From IMG/VR virus record IMGVR_UViG_3300042402_006309, positions 1,887 through 65,886 of that record: a DNA stretch of 64,000 bases; one strand, 5' to 3'. The translations under genes were made by a program, and so were the position numbers. The DNA is from a virus. Its lineage: Duplodnaviria > Caudoviricetes. A model generated the notes under the pieces. That model was given only the letters and a program-made list of their open reading frames with translations. It ran no database searches and was not told the origin of the DNA. Shown here piece after piece: positions 7,028 through 45,629 of the stretch (within the stretch, counting starts at the first letter, position 1; each line of letters begins with the position of its first letter).

Positions 7028-7223
7028 GCACGCTTTCTTTAGCGAGCCGTGTCCCCGACAGAATCCCGATCTTTAAGCAATTTTACAATTCTTGGAACGT
7101 AAGCAATGTATTAGTCCTTAGCCAAGTCTTCACTGAGCATGTTGCCGTCGTCAGAGTGTTTTATATTCAGGTCCGCATGCTTTGATCTAAAATAGGTTGG
7201 CACATACGGTTCACCGCACCTCA

Positions 7224-7598: not shown

Positions 7599-7602
7599 TG
7601 AG

Positions 7603-12855: not shown

Positions 12856-12884
12856 GGGATGGGGGAATTGGAAATTACGCGGAA

Positions 12885-14512: not shown

Positions 14513-14885
14513 GGGAAGGCTTGCTGGTTTCCTTCCTGGTGGACGGGGAGTTAGAAGAGCCGCACTATGACGACTGCGATGGCCTTTGGCCCCATGCCCT
14601 AAGGCATGCGGCTTGGACATGCGCCACCGCCTTCCCGGCCATTTGGTTGGTTTGGCGGCATCGTCGCGGTCGATACTGGCCGCGTAGTGGCGTAACCCCT
14701 AAATTCCCATCCATCGAAATGGATAAACATATCCCATGGCAAGAAACTCGGTACGACAAGCCAATAATGTGCGCAAATTTTGCACTCTATTGTGCATAAA
14801 ATCTGATTCGGCCCGAATACCATAGCCGGCGTCAATCGACTGCCATGGCCGCGAATGTGGTATGCGCGGGTTAATGCAGGAAAAG

Positions 14886-16193: not shown

Positions 16194-18872
16194 TCATGCC
16201 TCAATCGCCTTCCGGATGGCATCACGGATTTTGGCCTTTTCACCCGGCCCCTTGACCATCTCGAAGAAGCACTGGCCGCCGCTGCGTTCTTCCCAGAGTT
16301 TGCCGAGGCGATCTTTCTCACCGGAGTCGTCATTTGTGGAGCGGTCTTGGCCCTTGTATTCGACGACGAGGATTTTGCCGTTCTTGAGCTTCGCGACGAA
16401 GTCCGGGTAAAACCGGTCGGTGCTGGTTTGGAGCCAGAACGAATGCACGGGCTGTTTGTCGAGATTGCGGACCCACCACTCGATTTCCGGTTGCTCATCG
16501 AGGTATTGGGCGCAAAGAAACTCTTCCGGGGTGTTTCCCTTCTCTGTCTCGATCTCCAGTTCGCCGACGTTCTCGTAATAGTGCTTGGTGAAATCCCCGC
16601 TGCGTTTGCAGATCCAGCGCGCCGGGTAGGCGTTCGGATCGTAAACGAAGTTGTAGCCGCCGCCGACGCGCACCTTGACGGTGTGGTGCTCGCCGAAGAG
16701 CGCCATCTGGTATTCCTTGCGCCTTGCCTCACGCCTGAGCTGGGCAAGGACGGTCTCAAGCGAACGGCGAAGGTCGAAACGCTCGCGGACCAGTCTTCCC
16801 AGCGGAACTTCTTGCTGCATCCGCTGGACCACGGCGTCGAACCATGCACGGGCGACGCCGGTATCGAGGTCGTTGTGAGGGATGTTGCGGTCGAGCCATG
16901 ACACCAGCTTGACCTCGTTCCAGTTCTCGCGGACTTCGATCAAACGCATCCGGTCGGCGACTTCCGGGAGTTCGCGGGTGACGACGTTGCCGTCCACCAC
17001 GTCGATGATGCCTGAGTTGCGAGACTTTTCGGCACGGGTGAGCGTCGGGATGTCCTCTTTCCTCGGTGGCAGCGGCGGCCGCCACTCGGTTTCCAGCCAG
17101 ATTCCTTCGTCAGCGGGAAGGATCTCGCCGTCGAGTTCCAGCATCATCTGCGGGACGGCGAAATGTTCCTGCCGCTCTGCCGGGCTGGCCATGATGGTTT
17201 CCTGCATGCCGAGCTGAGCGATGGCGGCGCGGAGAATTTCCTTCGTTTCCGGTTCCTGCACGGCGTCCACCAGTGCTTTCATGGCCTTTTTGTCGGGTTT
17301 GCCGGTGAGGGTGATCTCGCGCTTGGCGGGGTTATGTTTCGACACATGCTCGCGGGCGGCGGGTGGCAGGGAATCAACCGGGAAATCTTCCGGCAGGGTG
17401 ACGGTGACGCTGCGTTTGCCGTCGGTATTGAAATCAAACGCCGATTGTTTTTTGCGCTGCACGAAGAATTCCCGCGCCTCCTTTTCCTCGTATCCGGACT
17501 TTTTGACGAGCTGGTCGCGCAACTGGTTCGCGGCCAGATAGAAATTCGGGCTGCGGACGAAGGCATAGGCGCGGTTGAGCGCGGGACGCTTCTTCTCCTT
17601 CGCGTTTGGCATGCGCAGGATGCGGCCTAACATCTGCTCGACCGCCGTGTTGCTGCTCAGGTTCGCCACGCTGCATAGCACATAGGCGAAGGGACAATCC
17701 CAGCCTTCCTTCAAGGCACTCTGCGTCACCACAAAACGAATCTGGCAATCCTCCGCGTTCAGGTTCACGTCCTTGAGTCCCTTCTCGTCGCCGGTGTGGA
17801 CGGCGATTTGATTGGCCGGGATATGGTGTTCTTCGCGCAAGGCGGCTTCCAACACCTCGAATGTCAGGGCATCGGGGCGGTCCTTGTTGTGTGGCTCGGA
17901 TTGGAAGAGCAGGATCGGACGAATGTATTCGCCGGTCTCGGCACGTTCCAGAGCGGCTTCCGCTTCGAGGGCTTCGCGCTGGGCGATGGCGGCGGCCATG
18001 ATCTCCTTAAAACCCGGCTCGGCGGTGAGTTCCACCGGCAGCTTGATCATCTTCTCCGCCTTCAACTCCATCGCGGAAACGCTGTGCAGCACGTTGCTCG
18101 GCGGGTATTCCTTGTGATCCGTGATGGGTGTCGCGGTCAGTTCGACGATGGCTCGTGGCTGGAATCGCTCCAAGGTCTGCAAGCTCAGGTTGCTGCGTGC
18201 GCCGTGCGCCTCGTCCACGATGACCAGCGGCCGGTGCATCCGCAGTACGTTCACGAGGCTGTGAGGGAAACCACCGGGAAATGAATTCTTCACCTCCAGT
18301 GGGATGTGATCGAAGTGGGACATCAGCCCGCCGCTGTTGTCATAGACGCGCCTGCCCTCGGTGGCTTCCACGCGATAAGCCTGGATGGTGGAAACGATGA
18401 TCGTCGCCTTGCCCGCGATGATGTTCGGCTGGATGCCAAGCGCCTCGGGACCGTCGTAAATCTCCACGTCGCCAAGTTCATCGTCGAGCACGCGCCGCAG
18501 GTCGCTGGACAGGTTCTTCATCAGGTTGACCGTCTGCGATTTGATTGCCTCGCTCGGCACCAGCCAGAGAACCAATGGCTGTTCTTCGTCCAGAAGCTCG
18601 TCTTTGAAAACCCGTACGGCACGCGCTCCGATGACGGTTTTTCCGCCGCCGGTGGGCACGCGGAGACAGACGAATGGCATGTCCTCTGGCAGTTCCGTCT
18701 CATTGCCGAGCGCGCCGACCTTGTGATAGGGATGCGCCATGCCGTGGAGTTCGGAGGTCGCCTCGATGAAGGCGGTTTCCGGGTTGCCGCTGATCCGGCA
18801 CTTGCGCCAATACTCCCGGAGCGATCCGAGGGTGGCGTTTTGATAGTCCTTGTGGCCGTAACGGTCGCTCAT
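16194..18872 (-). CDS. res: Type III restriction enzyme Res subunit
   Basis: VPTGGGKT, DEAH, EGWDCP, QMLGRILR and C-terminal FYPDF...VVEYKG nuclease; ATG 18872 overlaps the mod stop. Confidence 0.9.
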   Translation of the reverse strand: MSDRYGHKDYQNATLGSLREYWRKCRISGNPETAFIEATSELHGMAHPYHKVGALGNETELPEDMPFVCLRVPTGGGKTVIGARAVRVFKDELLDEEQPLVLWLVPSEAIKSQTVNLMKNLSSDLRRVLDDELGDVEIYDGPEALGIQPNIIAGKATIIVSTIQAYRVEATEGRRVYDNSGGLMSHFDHIPLEVKNSFPGGFPHSLVNVLRMHRPLVIVDEAHGARSNLSLQTLERFQPRAIVELTATPITDHKEYPPSNVLHSVSAMELKAEKMIKLPVELTAEPGFKEIMAAAIAQREALEAEAALERAETGEYIRPILLFQSEPHNKDRPDALTFEVLEAALREEHHIPANQIAVHTGDEKGLKDVNLNAEDCQIRFVVTQSALKEGWDCPFAYVLCSVANLSSNTAVEQMLGRILRMPNAKEKKRPALNRAYAFVRSPNFYLAANQLRDQLVKKSGYEEKEAREFFVQRKKQSAFDFNTDGKRSVTVTLPEDFPVDSLPPAAREHVSKHNPAKREITLTGKPDKKAMKALVDAVQEPETKEILRAAIAQLGMQETIMASPAERQEHFAVPQMMLELDGEILPADEGIWLETEWRPPLPPRKEDIPTLTRAEKSRNSGIIDVVDGNVVTRELPEVADRMRLIEVRENWNEVKLVSWLDRNIPHNDLDTGVARAWFDAVVQRMQQEVPLGRLVRERFDLRRSLETVLAQLRREARRKEYQMALFGEHHTVKVRVGGGYNFVYDPNAYPARWICKRSGDFTKHYYENVGELEIETEKGNTPEEFLCAQYLDEQPEIEWWVRNLDKQPVHSFWLQTSTDRFYPDFVAKLKNGKILVVEYKGQDRSTNDDSGEKDRLGKLWEERSGGQCFFEMVKGPGEKAKIRDAIRKAIEA

Positions 18873-20491
18873 GAGATGCGGAGGTTGTAGGGGATTTGCT
18901 TGAAGTCGATCCTGCCGCGCTTGAGCCGGGCCGGGGAAAGGCGTTGGGACGTGCCATAGACCACGGTCTGGGCGATGCCCTCGTGGCCGACGTTGATTTC
19001 CTCGATCACTTGCAATGTCTCGCGGCAAAGAGCGTTGCCGCCGCCGATGCTGCGGTCGCTGAGGATGCCGTTGTAGAGCAGATAGATGGCCTTGCCACGG
19101 TGAATGCCAAGCAGCGGCGACTTTGCGGAAACGCGCTCCTTGGGCAGCGGTTCGCCGGTCTCGGTGAAATAGACATGCCGCGCCAGTTCGGCAAAGCGCA
19201 CGGTGTTGCGGATCTGGCCGGTTTCGTCGAAAAGCGCATCGCCAAGCGTCACGTAGCGGAAGCCGCCGCCGAGTCCTTCGACCTGATCACCTTTGGCGTT
19301 GGTGTAGCCTTTGGCGACGCGGCGAACCCGTTCGCGGGTGATTTCCTTGGCGATTTCAGGCTGCATTTCCACCATAATGAACTGGCGCGGATCGTGTTGC
19401 GGTGAGGCAGCGTTGAGCTTTAGCACTGCGTGGCCAGTGGTGCCACTTCCCGCAAAACTATCAAGAATCAGATCACCGGGATTTGTTGAGATTTGGAGCA
19501 TTCTTTCTATTAGAATGCTAGGCTTTGGAGTGGCAAACGAGGCTGATTCAGAGAAGATGTCGCGCATCTCGTTTTTTGATGTTCTGTTGCTGCCGGCATC
19601 CTCCTTGTTCCAAAGTGTTCGCGGGACCAAATCGCTCACTTCGGTCAAATACCGCTTGATACTGGGTCGAGCTGAGCGGGTTGGTCCCCACCAGATCCGA
19701 CCATCCTTATCAAGCTCTCTGAGCTTCTCCTCTGACACCCGCCAGAAACGGCCAGCTGGTGGCGAGAACTCTCTGCCTGTGGGACCAGTGATAGTATAGA
19801 GCCCTTTGGAGTAGGGCTTGTTGGCATAGGGATCGCCGGGAATCCACAGGCCCCGCTCGTCATTGTCTGGATTATTATAGATAGAGTTAGAGGCATCTGT
19901 TCGCGGCAGTTTATTGGGTCGCCACGAAGGATGGCGTGAATAAACCAGAATATGGTCGTGATCTTCCGAGAACTGACGTGCTGAATTGCGAGGGGAATCG
20001 GCTTTCTCCCACACGAGATTTGCGACGAAATTTTGTGAACCAAAGATTTCATCCATGAGAAGCCTAAGGTGTCCGATTTCATTATCATCAAGGCAGACGA
20101 ATATCGTGCCGTCTTCCGTCAGGAAATCCCTGAGCAAGGCCAGCCTTGGATACATCATGCACAACCACCGATCATGCCGGTCGAGGGTTTCGCCTTCCTT
20201 GCCGACGGTTTCGCCGAGCCACTTGCGGATCGCGGGGCTGTTGACGTTGTCGTTATAGGCCCAGCCCTCGTTGCCGGTGTTGTAGGGAGGATCAATGCAG
20301 ACGCATTTCACCCTGCCTCTATAATACGGAAGGAGCGCTTTGAGCCCGACGAGGTTGTCGCCTTCCACGATCAGATTGCCGCTTCCTGGATCACCGCAAG
20401 AGAGCTCTGGTACGTCCTTGAGCAGATGGAACGGAACCTCCAGGTGATGATTGATGACGGCGTCCTTGCCGATCCAGTTGAGTGTGGGCAT
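18869..20491 (-). CDS. mod: Type III R-M methyltransferase Mod subunit
   Basis: IDPPYNTG, TPKP, LDSFAGSGTTGHA (beta-class order). Confidence 0.93.
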   Translation of the reverse strand: MPTLNWIGKDAVINHHLEVPFHLLKDVPELSCGDPGSGNLIVEGDNLVGLKALLPYYRGRVKCVCIDPPYNTGNEGWAYNDNVNSPAIRKWLGETVGKEGETLDRHDRWLCMMYPRLALLRDFLTEDGTIFVCLDDNEIGHLRLLMDEIFGSQNFVANLVWEKADSPRNSARQFSEDHDHILVYSRHPSWRPNKLPRTDASNSIYNNPDNDERGLWIPGDPYANKPYSKGLYTITGPTGREFSPPAGRFWRVSEEKLRELDKDGRIWWGPTRSARPSIKRYLTEVSDLVPRTLWNKEDAGSNRTSKNEMRDIFSESASFATPKPSILIERMLQISTNPGDLILDSFAGSGTTGHAVLKLNAASPQHDPRQFIMVEMQPEIAKEITRERVRRVAKGYTNAKGDQVEGLGGGFRYVTLGDALFDETGQIRNTVRFAELARHVYFTETGEPLPKERVSAKSPLLGIHRGKAIYLLYNGILSDRSIGGGNALCRETLQVIEEINVGHEGIAQTVVYGTSQRLSPARLKRGRIDFKQIPYNLRIS

Positions 20492-33201: not shown

Positions 33202-34008
33202 TCATGCGGCCAGTTTTTTGGCGCGCTCGGTGTAGAATTTGGTGAGGCCGCGGGCGTCGATGGCTTGGAAGAACCACTTCATGCGGGGCATCCCGACTCC
33301 GTTGTCCTCCGGGCGGTTGCGGACGGCGGCGGCGGATTCGGCGGCATCGAACATGCGGGCCATCAATCGCACCCAGTTGGTGATCTTGGCGGGATCGGTG
33401 GTGCCCGAGTGGTGGCGGACTTCGAGTGTCTGGTGGCGGAAGTAGGAATGGATGTTCAGCTTCCGATAGCGGCAGGGGTAGAGCTGCTTCATCTGTTCCA
33501 TGCTGCGGCAGGCGTCGATCTTGCGGAACATCTGTGAGCATTGGCCCCGGTGATTGCCGGCGTCGGTGATGCTGTGGTCGAGGTTCGTGCGGCAGTAGGT
33601 GTTGGCATTGCCCCGGCGGGATGCGGGCTGGAACGTATCCAGAACATCCTCGAATTTCAGCCACATCTTGAAGAGGTTCTTCACCGCCTTGAGTGACATC
33701 GTGCGGGCGTCGAAATGGACGTGAAGTCCGCAGCGCTTGTCCACCTGGGCTCCGGCGGCTTCGAGTGCGGCGGCGGCGATCCTGACTTCCTCGATGCCGG
33801 CCTCACCTTCGAGAACCGGTGAAACGAGTTCCAAACCGCAGGAGCCGTCGGTGACGATTTTCCAGTGAGGCGTCGTGTCGTGGGTGTAGTAGGAGGATTC
33901 GACCCGGATGCCTGCGGCTCTCAGGCTGGCGACGGCTTGTTGGGTGGAAATGGTGGCGAGGAATTCAATCTCGACTCCGAAGCGGCGGGACATCGTTGGC
34001 GTTGTCAT
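33202..34008 (-). CDS. Amidoligase_2 family (COOH-NH2 ligase) protein
   Basis: FGVEIE, WKIVTDGS, ELVSPVL, CGLHVH, RYRKLN, TLEVRHHSGT. Confidence 0.88.
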   Translation of the reverse strand: MTTPTMSRRFGVEIEFLATISTQQAVASLRAAGIRVESSYYTHDTTPHWKIVTDGSCGLELVSPVLEGEAGIEEVRIAAAALEAAGAQVDKRCGLHVHFDARTMSLKAVKNLFKMWLKFEDVLDTFQPASRRGNANTYCRTNLDHSITDAGNHRGQCSQMFRKIDACRSMEQMKQLYPCRYRKLNIHSYFRHQTLEVRHHSGTTDPAKITNWVRLMARMFDAAESAAAVRNRPEDNGVGMPRMKWFFQAIDARGLTKFYTERAKKLAA

Positions 34009-34015
34009 GGGTAAT

Positions 34016-34044
34016 ATCTGCCATGGTGCCACCTCACGTCCATG
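34016..34044 (-). promoter_or_regulatory. CATGGAC-N14-TGGCAGAT motif upstream of the amidoligase gene
   Basis: Same motif and spacing as the three plus-strand copies; 7 nt before ATG. Confidence 0.6.
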
Positions 34045-34093
34045 GCTAAGTGGAGTTAGAGGAAAAAAGACATAATCGGCACACGTCGTGGCA

Positions 34094-34274
34094 CCCATGA
34101 AACGTGCCAATCATGACAGAATCATAACCCTCCGAATGATGCGTGATTGGCACGCATCGTGACGCTCAGGAGGTGCGCCAATTCGATGTCTATCGAAGAT
34201 GTAATAACTCCGACTGAAAGACGAAAAAGACATGGACTCAAGTTGTCAGACTGGCAGATGAAGGATGATGAAAG
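34094..34274 (+). repeat. ~180-bp direct repeat copy 1 (inverted repeat + promoter-like motif)
   Basis: Shares blocks with 35071-35252; IR CGTGCCAATCA/TGATTGGCACG; CATGGAC-N14-TGGCAGAT at 34231-34259. Confidence 0.85.
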
Positions 34275-35044
34275 CAAACACACCCGACCTAACTACGAAG
34301 CCACCGATGCTGGCGAAGAATTGGGACAAGACCATGCGGCCGGACGGCTGGTGGATGTCAGAGAAACTCGACGGAGTCCGCGCCATTTGGGACGGCGAAC
34401 ATTTCCGCTCTCGCGGCGGCAACATATTCCACGCCCCGGCATGGTTCAAAGCGGGGCTTCCCGCTCTGCCGCTGGACGGCGAGCTGTTCGTCGGGCGAGG
34501 GAAGTTCAACGACGCAGTGAGCATCGTTCGGTCCATGACCGCTGACTGGTCGCCGGTTAGATATTTGATCTTTGATGTCCAAGCCGACGGCCCGACCGAA
34601 GACCGGCAACGCACGTTGCTCGCCCTGCAACTCCCCGGCCATGTCTCGATAGTCGAGCAGGTGCTCTGTCAGTCCGACAACGCACTGCTTGATTTCGAGC
34701 GCTCCATCCTCGACGGCAGGGGCGAGGGCGTCATGCTCCGCGCCCCGCGTTCATCCTACGAATTCAAGCGGTCCGGCCACCTCCGTAAGCTCAAGAGGTT
34801 CATCGACGATGAGGCCACCGTGATCGGCCATCAGGACGGCGAAGGCAAACACGAAGGACGGCTCGGGGCGTTGGTCTGCCAACTCAGGGACGGCACCACG
34901 TTCCGCGCCGGGTCCGGGTTTACCGACTTCGAAAGGGAAACCCCGCCGCCTATCGGTGCCATCGTGACGGTCCGCTACTTCGAACTGACGCCCGACGGCG
35001 TCCCGCGATTCCCAACATTCCTTGCCGTCCGCAACTACGAATAA
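34265..35044 (+). CDS. Minimal ATP-dependent DNA ligase
   Basis: SEKLDGVR, LDGEL, LIFDV, EGVMLR, LRKLK, OB-fold ending PRFPTF. Confidence 0.93.
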   Translation: MMKANTPDLTTKPPMLAKNWDKTMRPDGWWMSEKLDGVRAIWDGEHFRSRGGNIFHAPAWFKAGLPALPLDGELFVGRGKFNDAVSIVRSMTADWSPVRYLIFDVQADGPTEDRQRTLLALQLPGHVSIVEQVLCQSDNALLDFERSILDGRGEGVMLRAPRSSYEFKRSGHLRKLKRFIDDEATVIGHQDGEGKHEGRLGALVCQLRDGTTFRAGSGFTDFERETPPPIGAIVTVRYFELTPDGVPRFPTFLAVRNYE

Positions 35045-37237: not shown

Positions 37238-37756
37238 ATGAACAAACTGTATTACATCGTCTGCGACGACAAAGAAACCAACGTATTCGAAGGCCGCTAT
37301 CAGGGACGCACCCGAGGCGAAGCCTTGAAATTCCTCAAGCAATCCATCGGGCGCAAGACGCTCAACGGACTGGTCTTCACCATCACCGAAATCCCGGTGC
37401 CGCTGATTCGCGAGATTGTTGCGGAAATCCTTGCCGGTGGCGACGGCAGCAATGCTACCTCCGCTCCGAACGTCGTGCCGATCACCCGGCCGGAACCGGA
37501 AGCCAGCCCGGGACGCTACGATGCGTTCTCCGACGCCGCTGAGTCCGAACCAACGCCCGCAGAGGCCACGCCACCCAAGGCGAAGGCATCCAAGCCCGCC
37601 AAGAAGGTGGGCAATCCCGGCCACGGCGACGAGCAATGGTCACAAGTCCGGGCCTACTGGCTCGAATGCCGCAGCGTGAAACAAACCGCTGAGCATTTCG
37701 GACTGTCCCCCAACTCGATCAAGACCCGCAGTCGGAGGGAGGGCTGGGGTAAATGA
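37238..37756 (+). CDS. Protein with C-terminal HTH
   Basis: SVKQTAEHFGLSPNSIKTRSRREGW. Confidence 0.7.
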   Translation: MNKLYYIVCDDKETNVFEGRYQGRTRGEALKFLKQSIGRKTLNGLVFTITEIPVPLIREIVAEILAGGDGSNATSAPNVVPITRPEPEASPGRYDAFSDAAESEPTPAEATPPKAKASKPAKKVGNPGHGDEQWSQVRAYWLECRSVKQTAEHFGLSPNSIKTRSRREGWGK

Positions 37757-38088
37757 GCGCACCCCAATGGACACCGGCAATCGGTGACGGCGCGAGCGTC
37801 TGCCACTACTCCGACCGGACCGCCTGCACGGTGATCCGCATCAGCCCCAGCGGCAAAACCATCTGGATGCAGGAGGACACCGCCGTTCTGGACGGATGGA
37901 AACCCGAGTTCGTCGCCGGAGGCTTTGGCGGGCATTGCACCAACAACGCCACACAGACCTATCAATACTCGCCCAATCCCGAAGGGGCGACACATCGCGC
38001 CAGCCGCCGCAAGGACGGTTGGTTCCGCACCACCAACGGCGAGCCGGTCATTCCCGGCCGCCGCCACTTCCACGACTACAACTTCTGA
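37753..38088 (+). CDS. Hypothetical phage protein
   Basis: Coupled to the upstream gene; GDGASVCHYSDR...RRHFHDYNF. Confidence 0.7.
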   Translation: MSAPQWTPAIGDGASVCHYSDRTACTVIRISPSGKTIWMQEDTAVLDGWKPEFVAGGFGGHCTNNATQTYQYSPNPEGATHRASRRKDGWFRTTNGEPVIPGRRHFHDYNF

Positions 38089-38327
38089 TGAAGGTCGCAG
38101 TCGAAAAATACCGCAAACCCGATGGCTACGCCACGCGCTACTGGTCGGTGATCGTCGATGGCGAACTGCTCGCCGTCACGGTTTACCGCAAGGGCGCGGA
38201 GGCCGTCGCCAGGGCCATCAACAATTCCAACCGAGATCCCTATGTCACACTCCTTGAAGATTCTGCCCAGCCCGTCACCACGCCCTGCAAGCCCACCGCT
38301 GGCATGGCGACCTACCGGACCCGATGA
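38088..38327 (+). CDS. Small hypothetical protein
   Basis: TGATG coupling; RYWSVIVDGELLAVTVYRKGA. Confidence 0.65.
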   Translation: MKVAVEKYRKPDGYATRYWSVIVDGELLAVTVYRKGAEAVARAINNSNRDPYVTLLEDSAQPVTTPCKPTAGMATYRTR

Positions 38328-38910
38328 CCTCTGCGGCCCCGCCGCCACCGTCGCCCATCGACTCGTCGCCAAGGCACACAAGCTCCACGATGATCCCACC
38401 GTGCCTGTGAAGATTCTGCTCTACGGGCCGCCCGGTGTCGGCAAGACCAGCATCGCCGACATGGTGGCCGACACATTGTCCGGCACCCGCTTCGCCGTCG
38501 AGGAATTCAACGGCAAGCTCGTCACCGTCGAAATCGTGAAACAGTGGATGGCCACGCTGGGTGTCTGTTCGCTGTTCGGTGTCTATTCGGTGAAGATCAT
38601 CAACGAGATGGACCGCTGCACGCGGGATGCACAGGACTTGCTCCTGAGCTATCTCGACCGACTTCCACCAGGCCGCGCCGTGATCGGCACCAGCAACCTG
38701 CAACTCGACCTGCTCACCGAGCGATTCCAGACGCGCTTCCAGTCGATCAAGCTCGCGGCACCGTCCACCGAGGAAATCGCCACGATGCTCCGCCGCCACT
38801 GGCCGGTCGATGAAGCGACGTCATTGCGGATTGCGGTGGGCAGCGGTGGATGCGTGCGAGCCGCGCTTGCCGATCTGGAATCCTGGCTGGATGCCGAGGG
38901 GCTGTCATAA
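38242..38910 (+). CDS. AAA+ ATPase (clamp-loader/RarA-like)
   Basis: LYGPPGVGKT, IINEMD, GTSN, FQTRF. Confidence 0.8.
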   Translation: MSHSLKILPSPSPRPASPPLAWRPTGPDDLCGPAATVAHRLVAKAHKLHDDPTVPVKILLYGPPGVGKTSIADMVADTLSGTRFAVEEFNGKLVTVEIVKQWMATLGVCSLFGVYSVKIINEMDRCTRDAQDLLLSYLDRLPPGRAVIGTSNLQLDLLTERFQTRFQSIKLAAPSTEEIATMLRRHWPVDEATSLRIAVGSGGCVRAALADLESWLDAEGLS

Positions 38911-39206
38911 ATCAGTTCTCCTTGAAAAAACGCCCAATAAATCGCCGGACCAGGGGGAGTCCGCCCCTGCGGCGCTAACGCCTAACTAATGGGCGGCTCC
39001 CCAGTCAGACAAGCTGTATTGATCCCATACCATGAAATCTGCGCAATTCAATCCCATTTCCCAGATTTTGATCGGGATTGGGGGCGTGGTGTCCAATTTT
39101 GCAATGCGAATATTCATCTTCGGATGGTGCCCGCCGGATGCGTGGAAGGAGATCCTCCCGCTCTTGGCTCAGGCGATCCATGCCGTTGACACCATCCAAA
39201 GCGACG

Positions 39207-39863
39207 ATGACGGATGATTCCCCAAAAGCCCGGACGCTCGCCAATGGCATCGAAGTCTGGTGCAGTTTTGATAAGCTCGTGCCGGTGGGCGAACTGAAGC
39301 CCAACCCGCGCAACCCGAACACGCACCCGCAGCGGCAGATCGAACTGCTCGCCAAAAACATCCGCTACTTCGGATGGAGGCAAACAATTACCGTCTCCAA
39401 TCTCACAGGCCTGATCGTTTCGGGCCACGGCCGGCTGATGGCCGCCAGGCACCTCGGCGTGGAAGTCGTGCCTGTGGACTATCAGGACTTCGCCAGCGAG
39501 AACGATGAACTTGCCGTGCTGGTCGCCGACAACCGCTTGGCCGAACTTTCCACGGTCGATCTCAACGAACTCGAAAAAATCGCCAGCGAGTGGAAGGCCA
39601 TCGACTTCGATACGATCCTCGCGGGATTCGAGCCCGCCGACATCGAGGGGCTGCTCAATCCGGGTGGCAATGACGATGACGAGGATGATGATGACCGCCA
39701 CGACAAGGAACTCGACAAGAGCGACGTCACCGTCGCGGTCGGACTCTACCGGTTCCGCATCACTCAGGAAGACTTCATCGCGTGGTGCGACCGCGTGAAA
39801 CAGGACGCCGGTTTCGACAAGGAAAGCGTGCTCAACGAAATCCGCAGCCGCCTCGGACTATGA
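39207..39863 (+). CDS. ParB/Srx N-terminal domain protein
   Basis: LKPNPRNPNTH, IVSGHGRLMAA, ADNRLAELS. Confidence 0.88.
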   Translation: MTDDSPKARTLANGIEVWCSFDKLVPVGELKPNPRNPNTHPQRQIELLAKNIRYFGWRQTITVSNLTGLIVSGHGRLMAARHLGVEVVPVDYQDFASENDELAVLVADNRLAELSTVDLNELEKIASEWKAIDFDTILAGFEPADIEGLLNPGGNDDDEDDDDRHDKELDKSDVTVAVGLYRFRITQEDFIAWCDRVKQDAGFDKESVLNEIRSRLGL

Positions 39864-41374
39864 ACATCACACTTGAATCCATCGACTCCGTTAAACCATC
39901 GACTTACAACCCACGGTCGGCGGTGCCCGAGCGTCTCGACCTGATCGAGCTATCACTTCGCAAGCTCGGTTTCATCGCCCCGATCTTCGCCGACTCGGAC
40001 GGCGAGATTCTTTCCGGCCACCAGCGCCACCTCGTCGCATCGCGCATGGGTGCCACACACGTCCCGGTATCCCGGACCAAGGCGCTCGACCTCGACCAGC
40101 GAAAGGCGCTCAACATCGTATTCAACCGGGCGACCAATGATTTCGATTTCAACAGCACACCCGGACGGGTCACCAGCGAACTGCAATCGTTGGACATCCA
40201 AGCGCTCGCCGCACGCATCCCCGACAAGCAGGTCGGCGGCGACGGTTTCTTGCGCTGCCTCAAGCCCGCAGAAGTCGCGGTGAAGGATCTCTGCAAGGTG
40301 AACTCGGGCCGCTGGATCCAGTATGCCCGCAACCTCGCCCGCACGTTGCATCGCCACGGCATCCTCATGCCCATCGTTTGCCGCGAGGATCTGACGGTCA
40401 TCAACGGCATCGGTCGTTTGGAAATGCTCGCAGAGAAAGGCGTGGTATTCGCGCCAGTCGTGTTCGTCACCGAAGAGGAGGCGGAATTCGCCCGGGCCAT
40501 GATGAATTTGCTCTCGATGGATTTCGACATCCACACGCGCTATGCCGACATGCTCCGCTTCAATTCGTTCCGTCGCGCACGCCGCGTGAGGCGCGAACTT
40601 GGCAACGGATTCGTCTTCGCCACGCACGGCGCGAAGCCATGCAAGGACTTCGACATCGGCAAGGCGGCGGACCGTGCCCGCTGGACCAAGGAGCATGGCT
40701 CGACGATTCTCGACTTCGGTGCCGGCCACCTGACGGAAACCTTCCTCCTGCGCCAGGCCGGCATCGACTGCACGCCGTTCGAACCCTACCGGCTCGGACC
40801 AGGGGGCATCAACAAGGCGGAGAGTGTGGAACTGGCACGCACATTCCTCGCAGAAGTGGCGGCGGGCAAGGAATGGACCAGCATCTTCATTGCAAGCGTG
40901 CTGAATTCCGTGCCGTTTCGCGAAGATCGCGAGCACATCGCCTGCCTGTGTGCGGCCCTGTGCAAGCCGTTCACCAAAGTCTATGCCTGCGCATCCTCGG
41001 CGGGCGAGTCCGGTTGGCGACAGGTCAATGGCAAGGCGTTCATGAACGAGTCCAACGCTGGCAACATCGCGTTCCGCCTCGACTATGAACCTGGCATCCG
41101 CATCGGCGATTTTCAGGACAAGCCCAAGGTCCAGAAGTATCACACCGTTTCGGAGTTCCGCGACCTCTTCGGCCCGTTCTTCCGCTCTGTGAAGGTCGAT
41201 GACTTTTCCAACAACATCAACGCGGCCTGCGCGGCGGCACGTCCCGTCGATCCGGCCCGCCTCCGTGCGGCCATCGAGTTTGAATTCGACCTGCCCTATC
41301 CGGACGGCACCCGCATGGAACTCGCGCAATGCGCCATGGACTCTTTCTCCCAACGTCTTCAGATTACCCTATGA
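39860..41374 (+). CDS. Tandem ParB-domain + SAM-dependent methyltransferase-fold protein
   Basis: YNPR...LSGHQR; second ParB-like MPIVC...INGIGR; ILDFGAG...FEPY...ASVLNSVP. Confidence 0.82.
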   Translation: MNITLESIDSVKPSTYNPRSAVPERLDLIELSLRKLGFIAPIFADSDGEILSGHQRHLVASRMGATHVPVSRTKALDLDQRKALNIVFNRATNDFDFNSTPGRVTSELQSLDIQALAARIPDKQVGGDGFLRCLKPAEVAVKDLCKVNSGRWIQYARNLARTLHRHGILMPIVCREDLTVINGIGRLEMLAEKGVVFAPVVFVTEEEAEFARAMMNLLSMDFDIHTRYADMLRFNSFRRARRVRRELGNGFVFATHGAKPCKDFDIGKAADRARWTKEHGSTILDFGAGHLTETFLLRQAGIDCTPFEPYRLGPGGINKAESVELARTFLAEVAAGKEWTSIFIASVLNSVPFREDREHIACLCAALCKPFTKVYACASSAGESGWRQVNGKAFMNESNAGNIAFRLDYEPGIRIGDFQDKPKVQKYHTVSEFRDLFGPFFRSVKVDDFSNNINAACAAARPVDPARLRAAIEFEFDLPYPDGTRMELAQCAMDSFSQRLQITL

Positions 41375-41823
41375 TCATCCTGCTAGACCTCAACTACACG
41401 CTGGTGGCCAACAATCCGGCGCGCGGCACCACGCCAGAGCGCATGGAAAAGCGACTGGCCAACGAGCAATACCGGCAATGGCTGGTGGAACTCGTGCGGC
41501 CCCACACTGTCGTGCTCATCACCGCCCGCCCGGAAACCTGGACGATCAGGACGCTCGAACGCATCGAGGAGCAGACCGGATGGCGGCCGCATGATGCGTG
41601 CTTCGCGCCCAAGGGCTGGTGGAATCCACCGGCGATCAAGGAGCACTTGCTCAAAAAGGATGTGTTCCCGATCCACGGCGAGCACGCACGCTACCTCGCG
41701 ATTGAGAGCAATCCGCGGACTCGTGAGATGTATGCGAGGTTCTCCATCCCGTGCTTCTGGGTGACAGCGGAGGGCACCTGCCTGACCGAGGGAACGCGGA
41801 TCGTGAAACGACTGCCACGTTGA
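41371..41823 (+). CDS. HAD-fold (PNKP-phosphatase-like) protein with altered motifs
   Basis: LLDLNYTL (DxN), LITARPE, AIKE, AIESN. Confidence 0.7.
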   Translation: MIILLDLNYTLVANNPARGTTPERMEKRLANEQYRQWLVELVRPHTVVLITARPETWTIRTLERIEEQTGWRPHDACFAPKGWWNPPAIKEHLLKKDVFPIHGEHARYLAIESNPRTREMYARFSIPCFWVTAEGTCLTEGTRIVKRLPR

Positions 41824-41829
41824 TTCACG

Positions 41830-42027
41830 TCATTCAATGGCACCACGTTCGACGAGGCTTTTCTTCCAGTCGCCCTCAAAGCCAAACGTCGGAGCCTTCA
41901 CGGGCTCGGACAACCAGAAGTCAGTGAAGGCCGCAACGTTCGGAGCGCAAAACCAATGTGCTTCGCCGTTTTTGTCCATCGCCCACCAACGGGCATTCTT
42001 CGGAGCCGCGGACCAGTCGATTTTCAT
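41830..42027 (-). CDS. Small Trp-rich phage protein, antisense
   Basis: IDWSAAPKNARWWAMDKNGEAHWF...DWKKSLVER. Confidence 0.7.
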   Translation of the reverse strand: MKIDWSAAPKNARWWAMDKNGEAHWFCAPNVAAFTDFWLSEPVKAPTFGFEGDWKKSLVERGAIE

Positions 42028-42098
42028 TTGACCAAACTATCATTCCGTATCCGGCGAGCAAGGAAATCCGCCGTGGCGTTGACATCCACCACGCGGGC

Positions 42099-42821
42099 AT
42101 GAGTGAAGCCCAACGTGACGAGGTGATTCCACGCGGTGCCTGGCAGTTCGATCAGGAAGTGACCGCCGTGTTCGATGATATGCTCCAGCGGAGCATCCCT
42201 CAATACAACGCGATGCGCATGGTGACTTTTGAGGTTGGCCGGCGCTTCGTGCAACCCGGCACCGCAATCATCGACATGGGCTGCTCCCGCGGCCAGGCGC
42301 TGCTGCCATTCGTTTCCAACTTCGGCGCGGACAATGATTACATCGGCCTTGAAATCAGCGAGCCGATGATTGTGGCGGCGCGTCAGAACTTCAACTACCA
42401 CCCGCACGGCAATCGCGTCACCGTCCAGTCTGCCGACCTTCGCCACGAGTTCCCTGGTGTGACAGCGAGCCTCGTGCTCTCGGTGTTGACGTTGCAATTC
42501 ACGCCCATCGAATACCGCCAGCAGATCATTCGGCGAGTGTTCGAGTCTCTGGCTCCGGGCGGTGCCTTCATCCTCGTTGAAAAGGTTCTCGGCGCGACGT
42601 CCAAGCTCGATGAGGCGTTCGTGAACCTGTTCCTCAACATCAAGCGCGAGAACGGATATTCGGAGAGCCAGATCGACCGCAAGCGGATGTCGCTCGAAGG
42701 CGTGCTGGTGCCCGTCACCGCCCGCTGGAACGAGGAGCTACTCTATCAGGAAGGGTTCACGTCGGTCGATTGCTTCTGGCGGCATCTGAACTTCGCCGGG
42801 TGGGTGGCGGTCAAACCATGA
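42099..42821 (+). CDS. cmoA: CmoA-like carboxy-SAM synthase / methyltransferase
   Basis: WQFDQEVTAVFDDMLQRSIPQY, DMGCSRG, LTLQF, EKV, KRMSLEGVL, LNF, matching recalled E. coli CmoA blocks. Confidence 0.82.
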   Translation: MSEAQRDEVIPRGAWQFDQEVTAVFDDMLQRSIPQYNAMRMVTFEVGRRFVQPGTAIIDMGCSRGQALLPFVSNFGADNDYIGLEISEPMIVAARQNFNYHPHGNRVTVQSADLRHEFPGVTASLVLSVLTLQFTPIEYRQQIIRRVFESLAPGGAFILVEKVLGATSKLDEAFVNLFLNIKRENGYSESQIDRKRMSLEGVLVPVTARWNEELLYQEGFTSVDCFWRHLNFAGWVAVKP

Positions 42822-43438
42822 GCAATCCACGATCTCACGACGAAGCGCGGCCAACACTCGCCCCGGATGTGGCTGAGAAGATCCTCGACGCCGACTTTCA
42901 GAACGTGATTCGCAAAGTCGCGGCGGGCAAGCCGCTCACGGTTGCCGAGCGCACCCGCATCGAATCACGGGCGGCAGGCAGTAATGAGACGCTCGCCTAT
43001 GCCAATACTCTCGTGGAACTGGCCGCCGCGCTTGGGGTTTCCCGACGCACGCTTACGACCTGGCAGAAGATCGAGGGCGCGCCCAAGGCATTATCCAACG
43101 GCATGTGGCCGGTGGCCGACTGGCGCGAATTCGTCCGGCTCCGCGGCTTGAATGCTGGTCGCGTCCCGGTCGGCAATGAAGAAGCGCTCAAGGCCCGCAA
43201 GCTTCTGGCGGAAGTGGAGGAACGCGAACTGCGCATCGCGGTCAAAAAGGGCGAATACGTCCCGCTCACCAAAGTCCGCGAAGAATGGATCGGCCTGGTC
43301 GCCCAGGCGACATCCATCTTGCGGGCCAAATTCGAATCGGAGCTTCCGCCCGTGCTTTCCGGTCTCGACGCCACCGGCATCCAGCGGGAATGCCGACGCG
43401 CCATCGACGAAGTCCTGCGCTGCCTTCACGAATCATGA
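42818..43438 (+). CDS. Terminase small subunit (Nu1-like)
   Basis: HTH LVELAAALGVSRRTLTTW + coiled coil ...KGEYVP; directly before TerL. Confidence 0.8.
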   Translation: MSNPRSHDEARPTLAPDVAEKILDADFQNVIRKVAAGKPLTVAERTRIESRAAGSNETLAYANTLVELAAALGVSRRTLTTWQKIEGAPKALSNGMWPVADWREFVRLRGLNAGRVPVGNEEALKARKLLAEVEERELRIAVKKGEYVPLTKVREEWIGLVAQATSILRAKFESELPPVLSGLDATGIQRECRRAIDEVLRCLHES

Positions 43439-45255
43439 GTGTCCTCAAGGAAATCTGGCGTGAGGCATGGCAACCTCCTGACCGCCGCCCCGCCTGGCAA
43501 TGGTGTGAGGATCACATCGAGGGCATCCCGTATTCACCCAACCCGGGACGCTTCCGCTCGGAAAACTCGCCGTGGATTCGTGAGGTCATGGAATCTCTGG
43601 TCGATCCACGCATCCGGCTGGTTTCGATCATTGCATCCGTCCAGTCATCGAAGACCACCGCCCCAGAACTCACGCTTTGTTACATCATTTCCAACCTGCC
43701 GGGGCCCGCCCTCTGGCTCGATCAGACTGATGAGGATGCCCGCGATTATTCGGAATCGCGCCTGCAGAAGCTCTTCGACCAATGCCAGCCAGTCGCTCGG
43801 TTGATGCCGACCGGCGTTCACCGCCACAAGCGCAAGAACAACGCGATCCAGTTCAACAACGGCATGACGCTCTGGATTCTCGGAGCGCACAACAAGACCA
43901 ACCTCCAGCGTCGTTCGATCCGCTGGTTGATCGGCGATGAAACCTGGCGCTGGCCGCAGGGACACATGGCGGAGGCCGAGGCCCGCGTCACCGCATTCGG
44001 TTGGCTCGGCAAGTGCATCTTCATGAGCCAGGGCGGCGAGGAAGACGACGACACCCATCGCAAGTTCGAGATGACCGACCAGCGCGAGTGGACATTCGCA
44101 TGCCCTGAGTGCGGCCACCGCCAGCCGTTCAAGTGGGAGTGCGTTGAGTGGAGCAAGTCGGCTCGCGACGAAACCGGCGAGTGGGATTTCGACGAGGTCC
44201 GGCGCACCGCTGCGATGCGCTGCGAATCGTGCAACCACTACTTCAACGATGGCGAACGGACGCGGCGCGAACTCAACGCCACCGGTGCCTTCGTCGCCAA
44301 GAATCCGAAAGCCTCGAAAGAAAACGTCGGCTTCCACTGGAACGCCCTGTGCGCGATGAGCTGGGGGCAGTTGGCTGAACTCTATCTGCGAGCGAAGGCT
44401 GCGGCGCGGAAAGGCGACGTGTCACTACTCCAACAGTTCTATCAGAAACGGCTCGGTCTGCCGTGGCGCGAGTATGTCGAAGATTACAAACTCGAAATCG
44501 TCAAATCCGGCTACAAGCGCGGCGAGACATGGGAAGAGGAGGGCGCGATTGATCCGAAGACGGGCAAAATCCTCGCCGCCCCGCTGCCCGAGCGCACCAG
44601 CCTGATTCCTCTGCGCTTCATCACGGTGGACTGCCAGATGGATCACCTGTTCGCCGTGGTCCGCTCGTGGTCGGCGGAGGGATCGAGCCGACTGATGTGG
44701 AACGAACGCATTCTTTCATTCACCGACATCGACGTGTTGCAGGAACGCTTCGAGGTTCACCCGAGCCTCGTGTTTCTCGACGCCGGCTATGCGACCTACG
44801 ACGTCTATCGCGAGTGCTCCAAGCGAGGATGGGTGGCGCTCATCGGCGACCGCCGCCCGGTCTATGCGCACAAGGGGCGCGATGGCAAAACCGTCCAGCG
44901 GTTCTATTCGCCCCGGCGCAAGGTGGTGCTGTCGCATCGCCAACATTGCCACGTCCATTACTGGAGCAACCTCAACATCAAGGACACGCTGGCCCGCCTG
45001 CGTCGCAATCAGGATCCAGCCCAGGGGCCGACATGGGAAGTGCCGGACGACATCGACGATGACTATCTCGCCCAGATGGAAAGCGAGCAGCGCATCAAGG
45101 AAAAGGGCCAGTGGATGTGGAAGCAGATCGGATCACGTAGCAACCACTTCTTCGACTGCGAGGCGGAACAGGCCGCCGCCGCGACCATGCTCAAGATCGT
45201 AGGACGGGAGTCTATTGCAGCCGCGCTCGTTGACAGCGCGGACGGGGAGCAATGA
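43435..45255 (+). CDS. Terminase large subunit, GpA family
   Basis: SPWIREVM, SVQSSKTT, LIGDE, CPECGH, TVDCQ, NHFFDCE. Confidence 0.92.
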   Translation: MSVLKEIWREAWQPPDRRPAWQWCEDHIEGIPYSPNPGRFRSENSPWIREVMESLVDPRIRLVSIIASVQSSKTTAPELTLCYIISNLPGPALWLDQTDEDARDYSESRLQKLFDQCQPVARLMPTGVHRHKRKNNAIQFNNGMTLWILGAHNKTNLQRRSIRWLIGDETWRWPQGHMAEAEARVTAFGWLGKCIFMSQGGEEDDDTHRKFEMTDQREWTFACPECGHRQPFKWECVEWSKSARDETGEWDFDEVRRTAAMRCESCNHYFNDGERTRRELNATGAFVAKNPKASKENVGFHWNALCAMSWGQLAELYLRAKAAARKGDVSLLQQFYQKRLGLPWREYVEDYKLEIVKSGYKRGETWEEEGAIDPKTGKILAAPLPERTSLIPLRFITVDCQMDHLFAVVRSWSAEGSSRLMWNERILSFTDIDVLQERFEVHPSLVFLDAGYATYDVYRECSKRGWVALIGDRRPVYAHKGRDGKTVQRFYSPRRKVVLSHRQHCHVHYWSNLNIKDTLARLRRNQDPAQGPTWEVPDDIDDDYLAQMESEQRIKEKGQWMWKQIGSRSNHFFDCEAEQAAAATMLKIVGRESIAAALVDSADGEQ

Positions 45256-45629
45256 AAACCATCACTATCCTCCGCTTCCTCACCTTCCTCGGTTCCGGAC
45301 TCACCACGATTGCCGCGCTTGATCTCACTGGCATTGCCAACCTGCTGGACCCGGGCAGGGCGCAATACCTGCTCATCGCCGGACCCGCCGCACTCGCGGT
45401 GAAAGAGCTGGTCGTCGTGCTTGGCGATCTCTTCGACGACGGCAAGCCCAACAAATCGTTCAAGATCGGGTTGTTCTGCTTCGCCATGGCATTGCTGACA
45501 TTGCCGCTTCTCTCGTCCTGCACCGCACTGCCCGGAGTCACCGGTGAATTCATCAGCAAGGACGGGCGCATCCGGGTTCATCCGGACGGTCGTGTCGAGA
45601 TTGTGGTTGAACCCCGCACCTCCAAGTAA
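45252..45629 (+). CDS. Holin-like membrane protein with internal lipobox
   Basis: 2-3 hydrophobic segments, LLSSC; directly upstream of the endolysin. Confidence 0.55.
   Translation: MKTITILRFLTFLGSGLTTIAALDLTGIANLLDPGRAQYLLIAGPAALAVKELVVVLGDLFDDGKPNKSFKIGLFCFAMALLTLPLLSSCTALPGVTGEFISKDGRIRVHPDGRVEIVVEPRTSK

Follow-up and report, generated by a model that had tools for sequence, protein, structure and literature searches.

A phage ParB-ParB-methyltransferase-like protein family paired with CmoA-like genes beside terminases: a candidate user of carboxy-S-adenosylmethionine

Introduction

We studied a four-gene cassette in a stretch of 64,000 nucleotides (in the following, the window) from the IMG/VR virus record IMGVR_UViG_3300042402_006309 (Caudoviricetes). 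The whole record comprises 65,886 bases such that the window covers nearly all of it. The cassette encodes, all on the plus strand, a stand-alone ParB-like protein (ParB1), a ParB-ParB-methyltransferase-like protein of 504 amino acids (aa) for which we coin the name PPM, a HAD-like protein, and a homolog of the carboxy-S-adenosylmethionine (Cx-SAM) synthase CmoA. The genes of the small and large terminase subunits (terS, terL) follow directly downstream. Our main finding is that PPM and a CmoA-type gene form a genuine pair of ancient origin. We propose that PPM may use phage-made Cx-SAM to carboxymethylate phage DNA and place the chance of this somewhat below even; that the modified base is N6-adenine we consider improbable.

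Cx-SAM was long known from a single pathway only, i.e., the formation of 5-carboxymethoxyuridine (cmo5U) in tRNA, until a study from December 2025 linked it to one phage DNA modification via a C5-methylase homolog (Nat Commun 2025, PMC12783734, cited here from excerpts). Therein, the Cx-SAM made by phage CmoA is used by CmoX, which is homologous to C5-cytosine methylases and has an SPPC motif and Arg350, and the ligase CmoY then adds glycine. Respective products are 5-carboxymethylcytosine and its glycine amide, described for Synechococcus phage S-B43. PPM represents a large family without functional annotation beyond ParB, whose linkage to a CmoA-like gene extends over four bacterial phyla. 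If PPM is a Cx-SAM user, more natural DNA modifications would exist than so far described, a new enzyme scaffold would be at hand to equip DNA with a reactive carboxyl handle, and the recurrent ParB-methylase-terminase loci would gain an explanation. Given that the module is present in cultured phages, its chemistry is directly measurable and thus of high practical interest. A sharp prediction is that two basic residues of PPM (R239, K423) decide its cofactor choice.

Results

Co-occurrence of PPM with CmoA-like genes and terminases

We investigated three sets of loci, namely 80 close viral loci, 55 genome loci, and 80 diverse viral loci from a scan seeded with distant PPMs. From the diverse set, 2/80 loci without intact PPM open reading frame (ORF) were dropped, which leaves 78. 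The diverse loci were furthermore collapsed at 85% identity, resulting in 47 representatives.

A CmoA-like gene co-occurs with PPM in 80/80 close viral loci. It is also found in 41/55 genome loci, where 12 of the 14 loci without it are contigs that end too early. Similar results are observed for the diverse set, i.e., 74/78 loci carry a CmoA-like ORF, which is always on the same strand as PPM. For 71 diverse loci it is downstream of PPM and mostly close (66/71 within 1 kb of the PPM stop). Among the representatives, 44/47 have a CmoA-like gene, and one of the three exceptions provides just 1.2 kb of downstream sequence. When nine distant partners were compared with NCBIfam, CmoA was the best match for all of them (E-values from 1e-13 to 2e-46). 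An earlier model-made annotation of this DNA (in the following, the original prediction) had suggested the co-occurrence of the four genes as a check. Besides the CmoA-like ORFs, the diverse loci show ParB1 (tblastn match in 77/80) and the HAD-like gene (52/78) to recur as well.

The hosts comprise Verrucomicrobiota, Planctomycetota (a metagenome-assembled genome of Phycisphaerae), several Pseudomonadota, and, via cultured phages, Actinomycetota. Cultured carriers are Gordonia phage Evaa (gp1-gp6), the Pseudomonas phages SM1 and PaMx31 with relatives (gp051-053), and Aeromonas phage HJ05 (gp1-3). Among the papers listed by our literature search, none deals with DNA modification in the Samunavirus phages SM1/PaMx31.

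A terminase was recognised downstream of the module in 20/47 representatives, and for 3 more only a portal was found. The downstream large terminases are of three Pfam types, i.e., GpA, Terminase_3, and Terminase_6N/6C. That is, the module keeps its place ahead of the packaging genes whichever terminase family is present. This agrees with the initial view of the cassette as a ParB-methyltransferase locus linked to a terminase and fits the ParB-Tls locus, for which excerpts of Iyer, Zhang, Aravind 2016 (PMC4738411) describe adjacent genes for a ParB-domain protein, a methyltransferase, and a large terminase, with a predicted role in DNA modification at the time of packaging.

The CmoA homolog and the absence of a tRNA route

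The CmoA-like protein of the window matches NCBIfam TIGR00740 with 164.8 bits (E-value 2.7e-48; profile positions 9-239 of 239) and phrog_4752 with an E-value of 4e-73. Its residues 12-239 align to E. coli CmoA (PDB 4gek; E-value 4.9e-38). Kept E. coli positions are Y39, D62, G64, S66, D117, E164, K198, and R199, where the latter corresponds to R196 in the window protein. Arg199 of CmoA forms a salt bridge with the Cx-SAM carboxylate; CmoA relatives share this residue, whereas other SAM enzymes do not conserve it (excerpts of PMC3663124; SAM, S-adenosylmethionine). The Arg199 region is kept as originally claimed, and most cofactor contacts are kept, too. The same does not hold for the claimed NF motif (Asn132), since Ser-Val is found there; any kept NF is that of the C-terminal LNFAGW.

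The nearest cultured relatives (46-49% identity) are the CmoAs of Erwinia jumbo phages and of Alcaligenes phage Afa-NA1. In Erwinia phage Y3, the CmoA gene is followed by an asparagine-synthase-like gene, i.e., the same amide-ligase logic as in the published phage CmoX/CmoY system.

The loci of Y3 (L140, NC_047880) and Afa-NA1 (L139) are also of interest in their own right. Their Arg199-type CmoAs are 46-48% identical to that of the window. No C5-methylase is annotated or matched within 6 kb (4 ORFs of both loci scanned with Pfam), and D12-class N6-adenine methylases are located 3-5 kb from the CmoA genes. The Y3 CmoA is furthermore next to a 2-oxoglutarate (2OG)-Fe(II) oxygenase. Both loci may represent further non-CmoX uses of Cx-SAM.

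The original prediction had noted that the window lacks a CmoB-like tRNA enzyme. This extends to the whole virus record, where TIGR00452 (CmoB) has no match, PPM itself included, and to the hosts: among 5 host genomes with related prophages, the best CmoB match reaches 34 bits vs. a cut-off of 275, i.e., none is above the cut-off in 5/5 genomes. Strong CmoA matches in these genomes are only prophage copies. Given that the window also contains no tRNA genes, Cx-SAM, if made, must serve a phage protein. C5-methylases (PF00145) have no match anywhere in the 65.9-kb record, such that the cassette is not the published CmoA-CmoX system. PPM also has no SPPC motif; the original prediction had likewise seen no PC motif of C5 enzymes in it.

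Basic PPM residues and the clade without CmoA

One PPM clade has neither a CmoA-like nor a HAD-like gene. It comprises 7 loci (L156, L183, L224-L228), of which 5 provide at least 4 kb of downstream sequence. The clade keeps the SAM-binding motifs. Wherever the positions are covered, R239 is changed to Asn or Gly, S350 to Gln, and K423 to Met; all 80/80 distinct CmoA-linked PPMs have R239, S350, and K423. Known Cx-SAM users bind the carboxylate via Lys or Arg, namely K91 and R315 in CmoB (PMC4482062) and R350 in CmoX (PMC12783734). The coincidence of residue loss and CmoA absence is thus the pattern that is expected if R239 and K423 bind the carboxylate.

N6_N4-type methylase genes are found near this clade in at least two loci (L183, L224). 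In L183, a 450-aa N6_N4_Mtase protein follows PPM. The respective neighbour in L224, encoded on the minus strand, has 531 aa and contains both an N6_N4_Mtase motif and a pyridoxal phosphate (PLP)-dependent (PALP) domain, and ORFs of the same length and position are present in L225 and L226.

The clade also bears on an alternative in which PPM is an ordinary SAM-dependent DNA methylase of a ParB-terminase locus and CmoA acts separately, e.g., by draining host SAM into Cx-SAM to starve SAM-dependent defences. ParB-linked methylases beside terminases do form a predicted DNA-methylation locus (PMC4738411), but PPM is outside of the amino-methylase families of such loci (no PF01555, PF02086, or MT-A70). 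The SAM motifs of the CmoA-less clade imply that the fold can work without CmoA, while R239/K423 are lost precisely in this clade. SAM depletion by phage CmoA is raised as an open question in excerpts of PMC12783734; however, a SAM-draining phage would starve its own SAM-dependent methylase, and the near-obligate adjacency of both genes (74/78 loci; 44/47 representatives) is hard to square with independent functions. Many CmoA-like partners are without Arg199 (see below), which would fit such a separate role. Altogether, we rate plain methylation as rather unlikely.

Family, domains, and fold of PPM

Compared with PHROGs, PPM matches phrog_5475 ("unknown function") over its full length (E-value 5e-101), while a weak ParB_N is the sole Pfam match of the window PPM. 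The family comprises 951 clusters at 90% identity (among 8000 candidates scored). Using the C-terminal half as query, we find 314 clusters at 50% identity, nearly all with about 500 aa and the same layout. Members are annotated as "ParB N-terminal domain-containing" or hypothetical.

The AlphaFold (AF2) model of PPM has a predicted local distance difference test (pLDDT) score of 81.8 and a predicted template modelling (pTM) score of 0.76, with low confidence at residues 240-258 and 384-402. Residues 2-117 superpose on a ParB bound to the cytidine triphosphate (CTP) analog CTP-gamma-S (7bnr_A) with a Z-score of 13.0 and a root mean square deviation (rmsd) of 1.9 Å over 93 residues (VIA-align). 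Aligning the domain profiles of residues 1-112 and 128-214 with hhalign results in a probability of 97.4% (E-value 9e-12, 43 columns). That is, the double ParB architecture that had been read from the sequence is borne out. At the ParB motif position, SGHQR is found in domain 1, NGIGR in domain 2, and SGHGR in ParB1. The GERRxRA arginine patch is the CTP-binding motif of ParB.

For the C-terminal part, the PPM profile matches UbiG (4kdc, E-value 3e-4) in the PDB next to Noc/ParB (E-value 2e-9). A single-sequence search of the PDB finds ParB/Noc only, i.e., the methyltransferase domain surfaced with the profile. The best VIA-align match of residues 222-463 is METTL6 (Z-score 13.4, rmsd 3.3 Å, 186 residues). 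Within about 2 Z-score units of it, we observe glycine N-methyltransferase (GNMT, Z-score 12.1), CcbJ, toxoflavin N-methyltransferases, several C-methyltransferases, and Trm9. Foldseek ranks XrdM (E-value 3.8e-5), CcbJ, ToxA, and glycine-sarcosine N-methyltransferase at the top. Pfam's Methyltransf_23 (PF13489) matches 30/37 PPM family members (best E-value 3.4e-11). Going by the model, PPM is of class I methyltransferase fold, Methyltransf_23 type. No other protein of the cassette with such a fold accompanies CmoA. Matches to the DNA amino-methylase families PF01555 (N6_N4_Mtase), PF02086 (D12), and MT-A70 are not found for PPM in Pfam.

PPM keeps its cofactor-binding motifs intact. Seven residues are invariant in 91/91 sequences, namely D285, G287, G289, E308, N349, P352, and F353. 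D285-F-G287-A-G289 forms motif I, i.e., the DFGAG motif of the original prediction is real, and E308 is the ribose-binding acidic residue after beta2. The invariant residues after beta4 are N349, P352, and F353 (NSVPF) and not the SVLN that was named alongside, and the stretch aligns to the ordinary LxHVP region of UbiG/Methyltransf_23 enzymes. That SVLN would mark amino-methyltransferases finds no support in our results. The motif N349-S-V-P352-F353 is one residue longer than the NPPF of DNA amino-methyltransferases. An invariant Asn...Pro-Phe after beta4 would be compatible with attack by a nitrogen. Besides the basic residues R239 and K423, the domain also carries R357.

ParB1 and the HAD-like protein

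ParB1 matches the PHROG ParB families phrog_498 (E-value 2e-37) and phrog_620 (E-value 3.7e-33), while its Pfam match to ParB_N is weak (E-value 1.5e-3). A complex prediction of PPM and ParB1 scored 0.22 vs. a mark of 0.32; made without controls, it speaks neither for nor against binding. From excerpts of O'Toole et al. (PNAS 2026, PMC13229309), a phage ParB homolog is required for the action of a thymine dioxygenase on duplex DNA. By analogy, this system is the best precedent for ParB1 as well as for the fused ParB-like domains, and ParB1 is a probable DNA-loading or activating partner of PPM. Both systems have in common that a phage ParB gene adjoins a post-replicative base-modifying enzyme (a putative one in the case of PPM), where the ParB1-PPM pairing is inferred. 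They differ in chemistry (Fe/2OG oxidation for the dioxygenases) and in the two ParB-like domains that are also fused to PPM itself.

The HAD-like protein matches phrog_32036 and has no Pfam match. Also a sequence-based comparison of its profile with the PDB provides nothing meaningful (best E-value 0.11, to unrelated proteins). Its AF2 model (pLDDT 91.0) finds the 3'-phosphatase domain of T4 polynucleotide kinase (Pnkp; 5uj0_A) as best Foldseek match, with an E-value of 3.8e-6, TM-scores of 0.70/0.73, and an rmsd of 2.8 Å. Invariant residues in 13/13 aligned sequences are D6, N8, T10, T51, K90, E112, S113, and N114. Motif I of HAD phosphatases reads Asp-x-Asp-x-Thr and provides the nucleophile and the general acid. 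Here, it is D6-L-N8-Y-T10, i.e., Asn replaces the second Asp in all 13 sequences. The HAD had thus rightly been called altered. With T4 Pnkp it shares the HAD fold, the nucleophile Asp, the motif II Thr, and the motif III Lys, while it differs by the Asn in place of the general acid Asp at +2 and by having no kinase domain.

In some modules (L124, L129, L151, L152, L162, L178), we observe two HAD-like genes, one 5' of ParB1 and one after PPM.

Given that the nearest folds of PPM are tRNA and small-molecule enzymes, a substrate other than DNA is possible. That is, PPM and CmoA could carboxymethylate nucleotides ahead of replication (where the HAD would be a nucleotidase), RNA such as tRNA, or a protein of the packaging machinery or the virion. 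In favour of this, one can point to METTL6 (which forms 3-methylcytidine (m3C) in tRNA), Trm9, and small-molecule enzymes such as GNMT, CcbJ, ToxA, and TylM1 as nearest folds, and to an ESM-feature search in which the HAD falls close to clusters of T5 5'-deoxynucleotidase (score 0.94, no more than a lead). The best structural match of the HAD, however, is a polynucleotide 3'-phosphatase and not a nucleotidase, no nucleotide kinase or polymerase adjoins the module, and the window is without tRNA genes. While the ParB/Srx fold binds nucleotides too, the structural match of the first ParB-like domain is to ParB proteins that clamp DNA (Z-score of 13.0, see above). Further arguments for DNA are the position beside three terminase families, which fits action on DNA being packaged, and the experimental precedent of a phage ParB paired with a DNA base-modifying enzyme (PMC13229309). 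We regard a non-DNA target as rather unlikely. In favour of DNA carboxymethylation, the other parts of the module have DNA-acting relatives as well (ParB; the T4 Pnkp 3'-phosphatase fold).

Observations that weigh against the proposed reading

The following observations speak against a Cx-SAM-dependent carboxymethylation of DNA by PPM. First, the loci L113 and L115 (7-8 kb downstream) have PPM and HAD-like genes, and neither a CmoA-like gene nor a terminase. Second, the covariation of R239/K423 rests on one clade, i.e., a single evolutionary event. Furthermore, R239 borders a low-confidence stretch of the model (240-250). Third, PPM resembles no known DNA methylase. By fold, it comes closest to METTL6 and to enzymes that methylate N, C, or O atoms of small molecules, with Z-scores tied within about 2. 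Fourth, the CmoA-like protein of the window is below the TIGR00740 equivalog cut-off (164.8 vs. 193.3 bits), and some of its cofactor contacts are changed (D89 to Glu, N90 to Ile, N132 to Val). The phage relatives from Erwinia Y3 and Afa-NA1 show the same Val at N132 and Glu at D89, with Thr and Val, respectively, and not Ile, at N90.

Another point is an N6_N4_Mtase gene of the same record (18869-20491, minus strand, E-value 4e-39), whose product could in principle use Cx-SAM. The gene overlaps with the 5' end of another minus-strand gene, which encodes a ResIII helicase of 944 aa (16194-19028), and both are arranged like a type III restriction-modification pair. As a Cx-SAM user it is an unlikely candidate given its distance of about 19 kb, the opposite strand, the type III-like pairing, and its location outside of the conserved module.

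Variation is also observed for Arg199 itself. Among 89 CmoA-likes (not deduplicated), 42 have Arg at position 199, 21 Glu, 14 Ala, 6 Thr, and 6 another residue. The PPM tree (quick IQ-TREE, 84 rows, identical rows dropped) requires a minimum of 5 switches between partner types. In the same tree, the Arg-type clade of the window has a Puniceicoccales/Opitutales clade as its sister. Compared with the window, the PPMs of the latter show 63-71% identity, but their CmoA partners only 28-32%, with Ala or Val as residue 199. One of two readings is that one CmoA subfamily took the place of another within the module, which would suggest interchangeability; the other is a difference in donor between the modules. 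For the Arg199-less partners, either Arg199 is dispensable or relocated, or the respective modules use another donor. From the alignment, the Arg199-less types (KA..LRG, KE..QRP, KT) have an Arg one or two turns further along the helix, at 203 or 207, which we conjecture to stand in for Arg199. Lys198 is kept in every aligned partner shown except for one truncated partner (L158).

These data relate to a further alternative, i.e., that the CmoA-likes, possibly including that of the window, make another SAM derivative or are methyltransferases, and that PPM uses or cooperates with that product. None of the tested partners reaches the equivalog cut-off for CmoA (51-165 vs. 193.3 bits), and even the window protein does not keep Asn132; on the other hand, the latter keeps Arg199 and K198 and shows its 46-49% identity to phage CmoAs that are clustered with asparagine-synthase-like ligases. 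About half of the partners have another residue instead of Arg199, but R239 and K423 of PPM are invariant whatever the partner type, which argues for one common anionic donor, and the Arg at 203 or 207 would compensate in the Arg199-less types. We consider this alternative improbable.

Proposed mechanism

For Cx-SAM-dependent DNA carboxymethylation, we suggest the following course. Judging from homology and the kept Arg199, the CmoA homolog would convert SAM and prephenate to Cx-SAM. PPM would be held on DNA, or on a nucleotide, by its two ParB-like domains, and its class I methyltransferase-fold domain would transfer the carboxymethyl group of Cx-SAM onto phage DNA, with R239 and K423 as proposed binders of the Cx-SAM carboxylate. 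ParB1 probably aids the action on duplex DNA, as phage ParB does for the thymine dioxygenase. The Pnkp-like HAD with its Asp-x-Asn may be an optional accessory. From the translational coupling to terS/terL, the CmoA, HAD, PPM, and ParB1 genes are probably expressed with the packaging genes. The original interpretation is thereby partly supported; an exocyclic amine such as N6-adenine as target, anti-restriction as purpose, and action at packaging time, which it had put forward as well, find no support in our results.

Another candidate component is an Amidoligase_2 protein, encoded on the minus strand about 5 kb upstream of the cassette beside a DNA ligase gene (34265-35044, plus strand). It has tblastn matches in many close relatives and in 1/80 diverse loci, for which reason we rejected it as a core module member. 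By analogy with CmoY, which belongs to another family, it is a possible clade-specific tailoring enzyme that would amidate the carboxymethyl group.

If all of these suggestions are combined, PPM would found a second widespread family of Cx-SAM DNA carboxymethyltransferases that is unrelated to C5-methylases. Here, R239/K423 would clamp the carboxylate, an exocyclic or ring base nitrogen would be alkylated, ParB1 would activate PPM on duplex DNA, the Arg199-less partners would still be Cx-SAM synthases with the Arg shifted along the helix, and in the window clade Amidoligase_2 would amidate the product to a Mom-like carbamoylmethyl base. In this entirety, the scenario is a long shot.

Relation to known systems

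The cassette shares with the CmoA-CmoX-CmoY system a phage CmoA without CmoB, an adjoining methyltransferase-fold gene, and ParB-domain proteins, which are common in CmoA-CmoX contigs according to excerpts of PMC12783734; also here, Arg/Lys are expected to bind the carboxylate. An amide-forming ligase elsewhere in the phage is a further likeness, where Amidoligase_2 is from another family than CmoY. In contrast to CmoX, PPM is no C5-methylase, has no SPPC motif, and consists of two ParB-like domains fused to a Methyltransf_23-type domain. Within the excerpts of PMC12783734, a preliminary search is described to give no CmoA-linked candidates for N6-adenine or N4-cytosine carboxymethyltransferases.

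With E. coli CmoA/CmoB, which act on tRNA (cmo5U34), the cassette has in common the CmoA fold and contacts including Arg199, a class I methyltransferase-fold enzyme as presumed Cx-SAM user, and basic residues as presumed carboxylate binders. Different from CmoB, PPM is without TIGR00452 match, fused to ParB, and adjoins a terminase, in a setting without tRNA genes and with hosts that lack CmoB.

The window shows the side-by-side arrangement of ParB gene, methyltransferase-fold gene, and large terminase that is known from the ParB-Tls locus. Unlike the ParB-Tls methylases, which are from N6-adenine families, the catalytic domain of PPM belongs to none of these and is tied to a CmoA-like gene.

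Mom of phage Mu, an enzyme of GNAT fold that depends on acetyl-CoA/iron, produces N6-carbamoylmethyl-adenine (PMC7261163). The proposed modification would likewise place a two-carbon carboxymethyl-type group on temperate phage DNA, and carboxymethylation plus amidation would give the same kind of product. Mom is unrelated in sequence to the cassette enzymes, however, and an adenine target is not indicated by any of our results.

In the literature covered by our search, which left out most subscription journals, the PPM family was not found to be described as a Cx-SAM user, and phage use of Cx-SAM is essentially limited to PMC12783734. Within the same scope, no natural enzymatic N-carboxymethyl DNA base was found; among the papers listed, N6-carboxymethyl-dA appears only as a chemical DNA lesion.

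Locus layout and neighbouring genes

Coordinates are summarized in Table 1. The four cassette genes are present on the plus strand where the original prediction had located them, and the CmoA stop overlaps the terS start. As for the coupling that had been claimed for the first three genes, the ATGA stop/start overlaps of ParB1/PPM (39860) and PPM/HAD (41371) were read from the sequence, as was that of CmoA/terS (42818). A fourth such overlap, for terS/terL at 43435, was deduced from the ORF coordinates. HAD and CmoA are not coupled but separated by 275 nt.

Table 1. Features of the cassette and its surroundings (positions within the window).
Feature	Position	Strand	Length and supporting evidence
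Amidoligase_2 protein	33202..34110	-	Pfam PF12224 (E-value 6e-41)
ParB1, stand-alone ParB-like protein	39207..39863	+	218 aa; GHGR motif, acidic linker; phrog_498, phrog_620, Pfam ParB_N
PPM, whole ORF	39860..41374	+	504 aa; phrog_5475
PPM residues 1-117, first ParB N-terminal-like domain with SGHQR motif	39860..40210	+	structure and profile matches
PPM residues 128-214, second, degenerate ParB-like domain with NGIGR replacing SGHQR	40241..40501	+	hhalign
PPM residues 222-504, predicted class I SAM-methyltransferase-fold domain with N-terminal lid	40523..41374	+	Pfam, PDB profile, AF2 model
HAD-fold protein of T4 Pnkp 3'-phosphatase type, Asp6-x-Asn8 in motif I	41371..41823	+	150 aa; phrog_32036, fold search
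Small ORF within the HAD-CmoA insert	41830..42027	-	65 aa; phrog_1972 (E-value 9.5e-9)
CmoA-type carboxy-SAM synthase homolog, Arg199 kept as R196	42099..42821	+	240 aa; TIGR00740, PDB 4gek, phrog_4752
terS, small terminase subunit	42818..43438	+	phrog_57 (E-value 7.9e-12)
terL, large terminase, GpA type	43435..45255	+	Pfam GpA_ATPase (E-value 5e-39), GpA_nuclease (E-value 7e-27)

The 275-nt gap between HAD and CmoA contains a small minus-strand ORF. It has no tblastn match in any of the 80/80 close viral loci, where CmoA directly follows HAD, and recurs in just 2/55 genome loci (L095, L105). The ORF was thus rejected as a module member, and the stretch is an insert outside of the conserved module.

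Also the CmoA/terS overlap is not universal. In L055, L056, L045, L050, and other close relatives, 1.5-3.8 kb of extra DNA are located between both genes. A promoter/terminator scan of 37500-45500 found 1 and 11 candidates vs. 1.6 and 7.3 in shuffles, respectively, i.e., no excess, and is uninformative on the operon. In the locus L217 (3775-6903), a 1042-aa protein is encoded 3' of the module, probably a terminase with a LAGLIDADG homing-endonuclease or intein-like insert.

Directly 5' of ParB1, an AAA+ clamp-loader-like ATPase is encoded (38158-38910, plus strand; PF00004 with E-value 2e-9 and delta-prime-like NCBIfam matches). It has tblastn matches in most close relatives, but in 8/80 diverse loci only.

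From about 22.8 kb on, the window resembles a temperate phage. The gene order in this part is an XRE/M78 repressor pair, replication helicases, DNA ligase, the cassette, terminase, a lambda-type portal, an S49 protease, and the coat. The region 2522-14620 on the minus strand, in contrast, resembles polymorphic-toxin or host-like DNA. It encodes a 1750-aa protein (7603-12855) with RHS repeats, a C39 peptidase domain, and tetratricopeptide repeats, which is flanked by proteins with TSP3 repeats.

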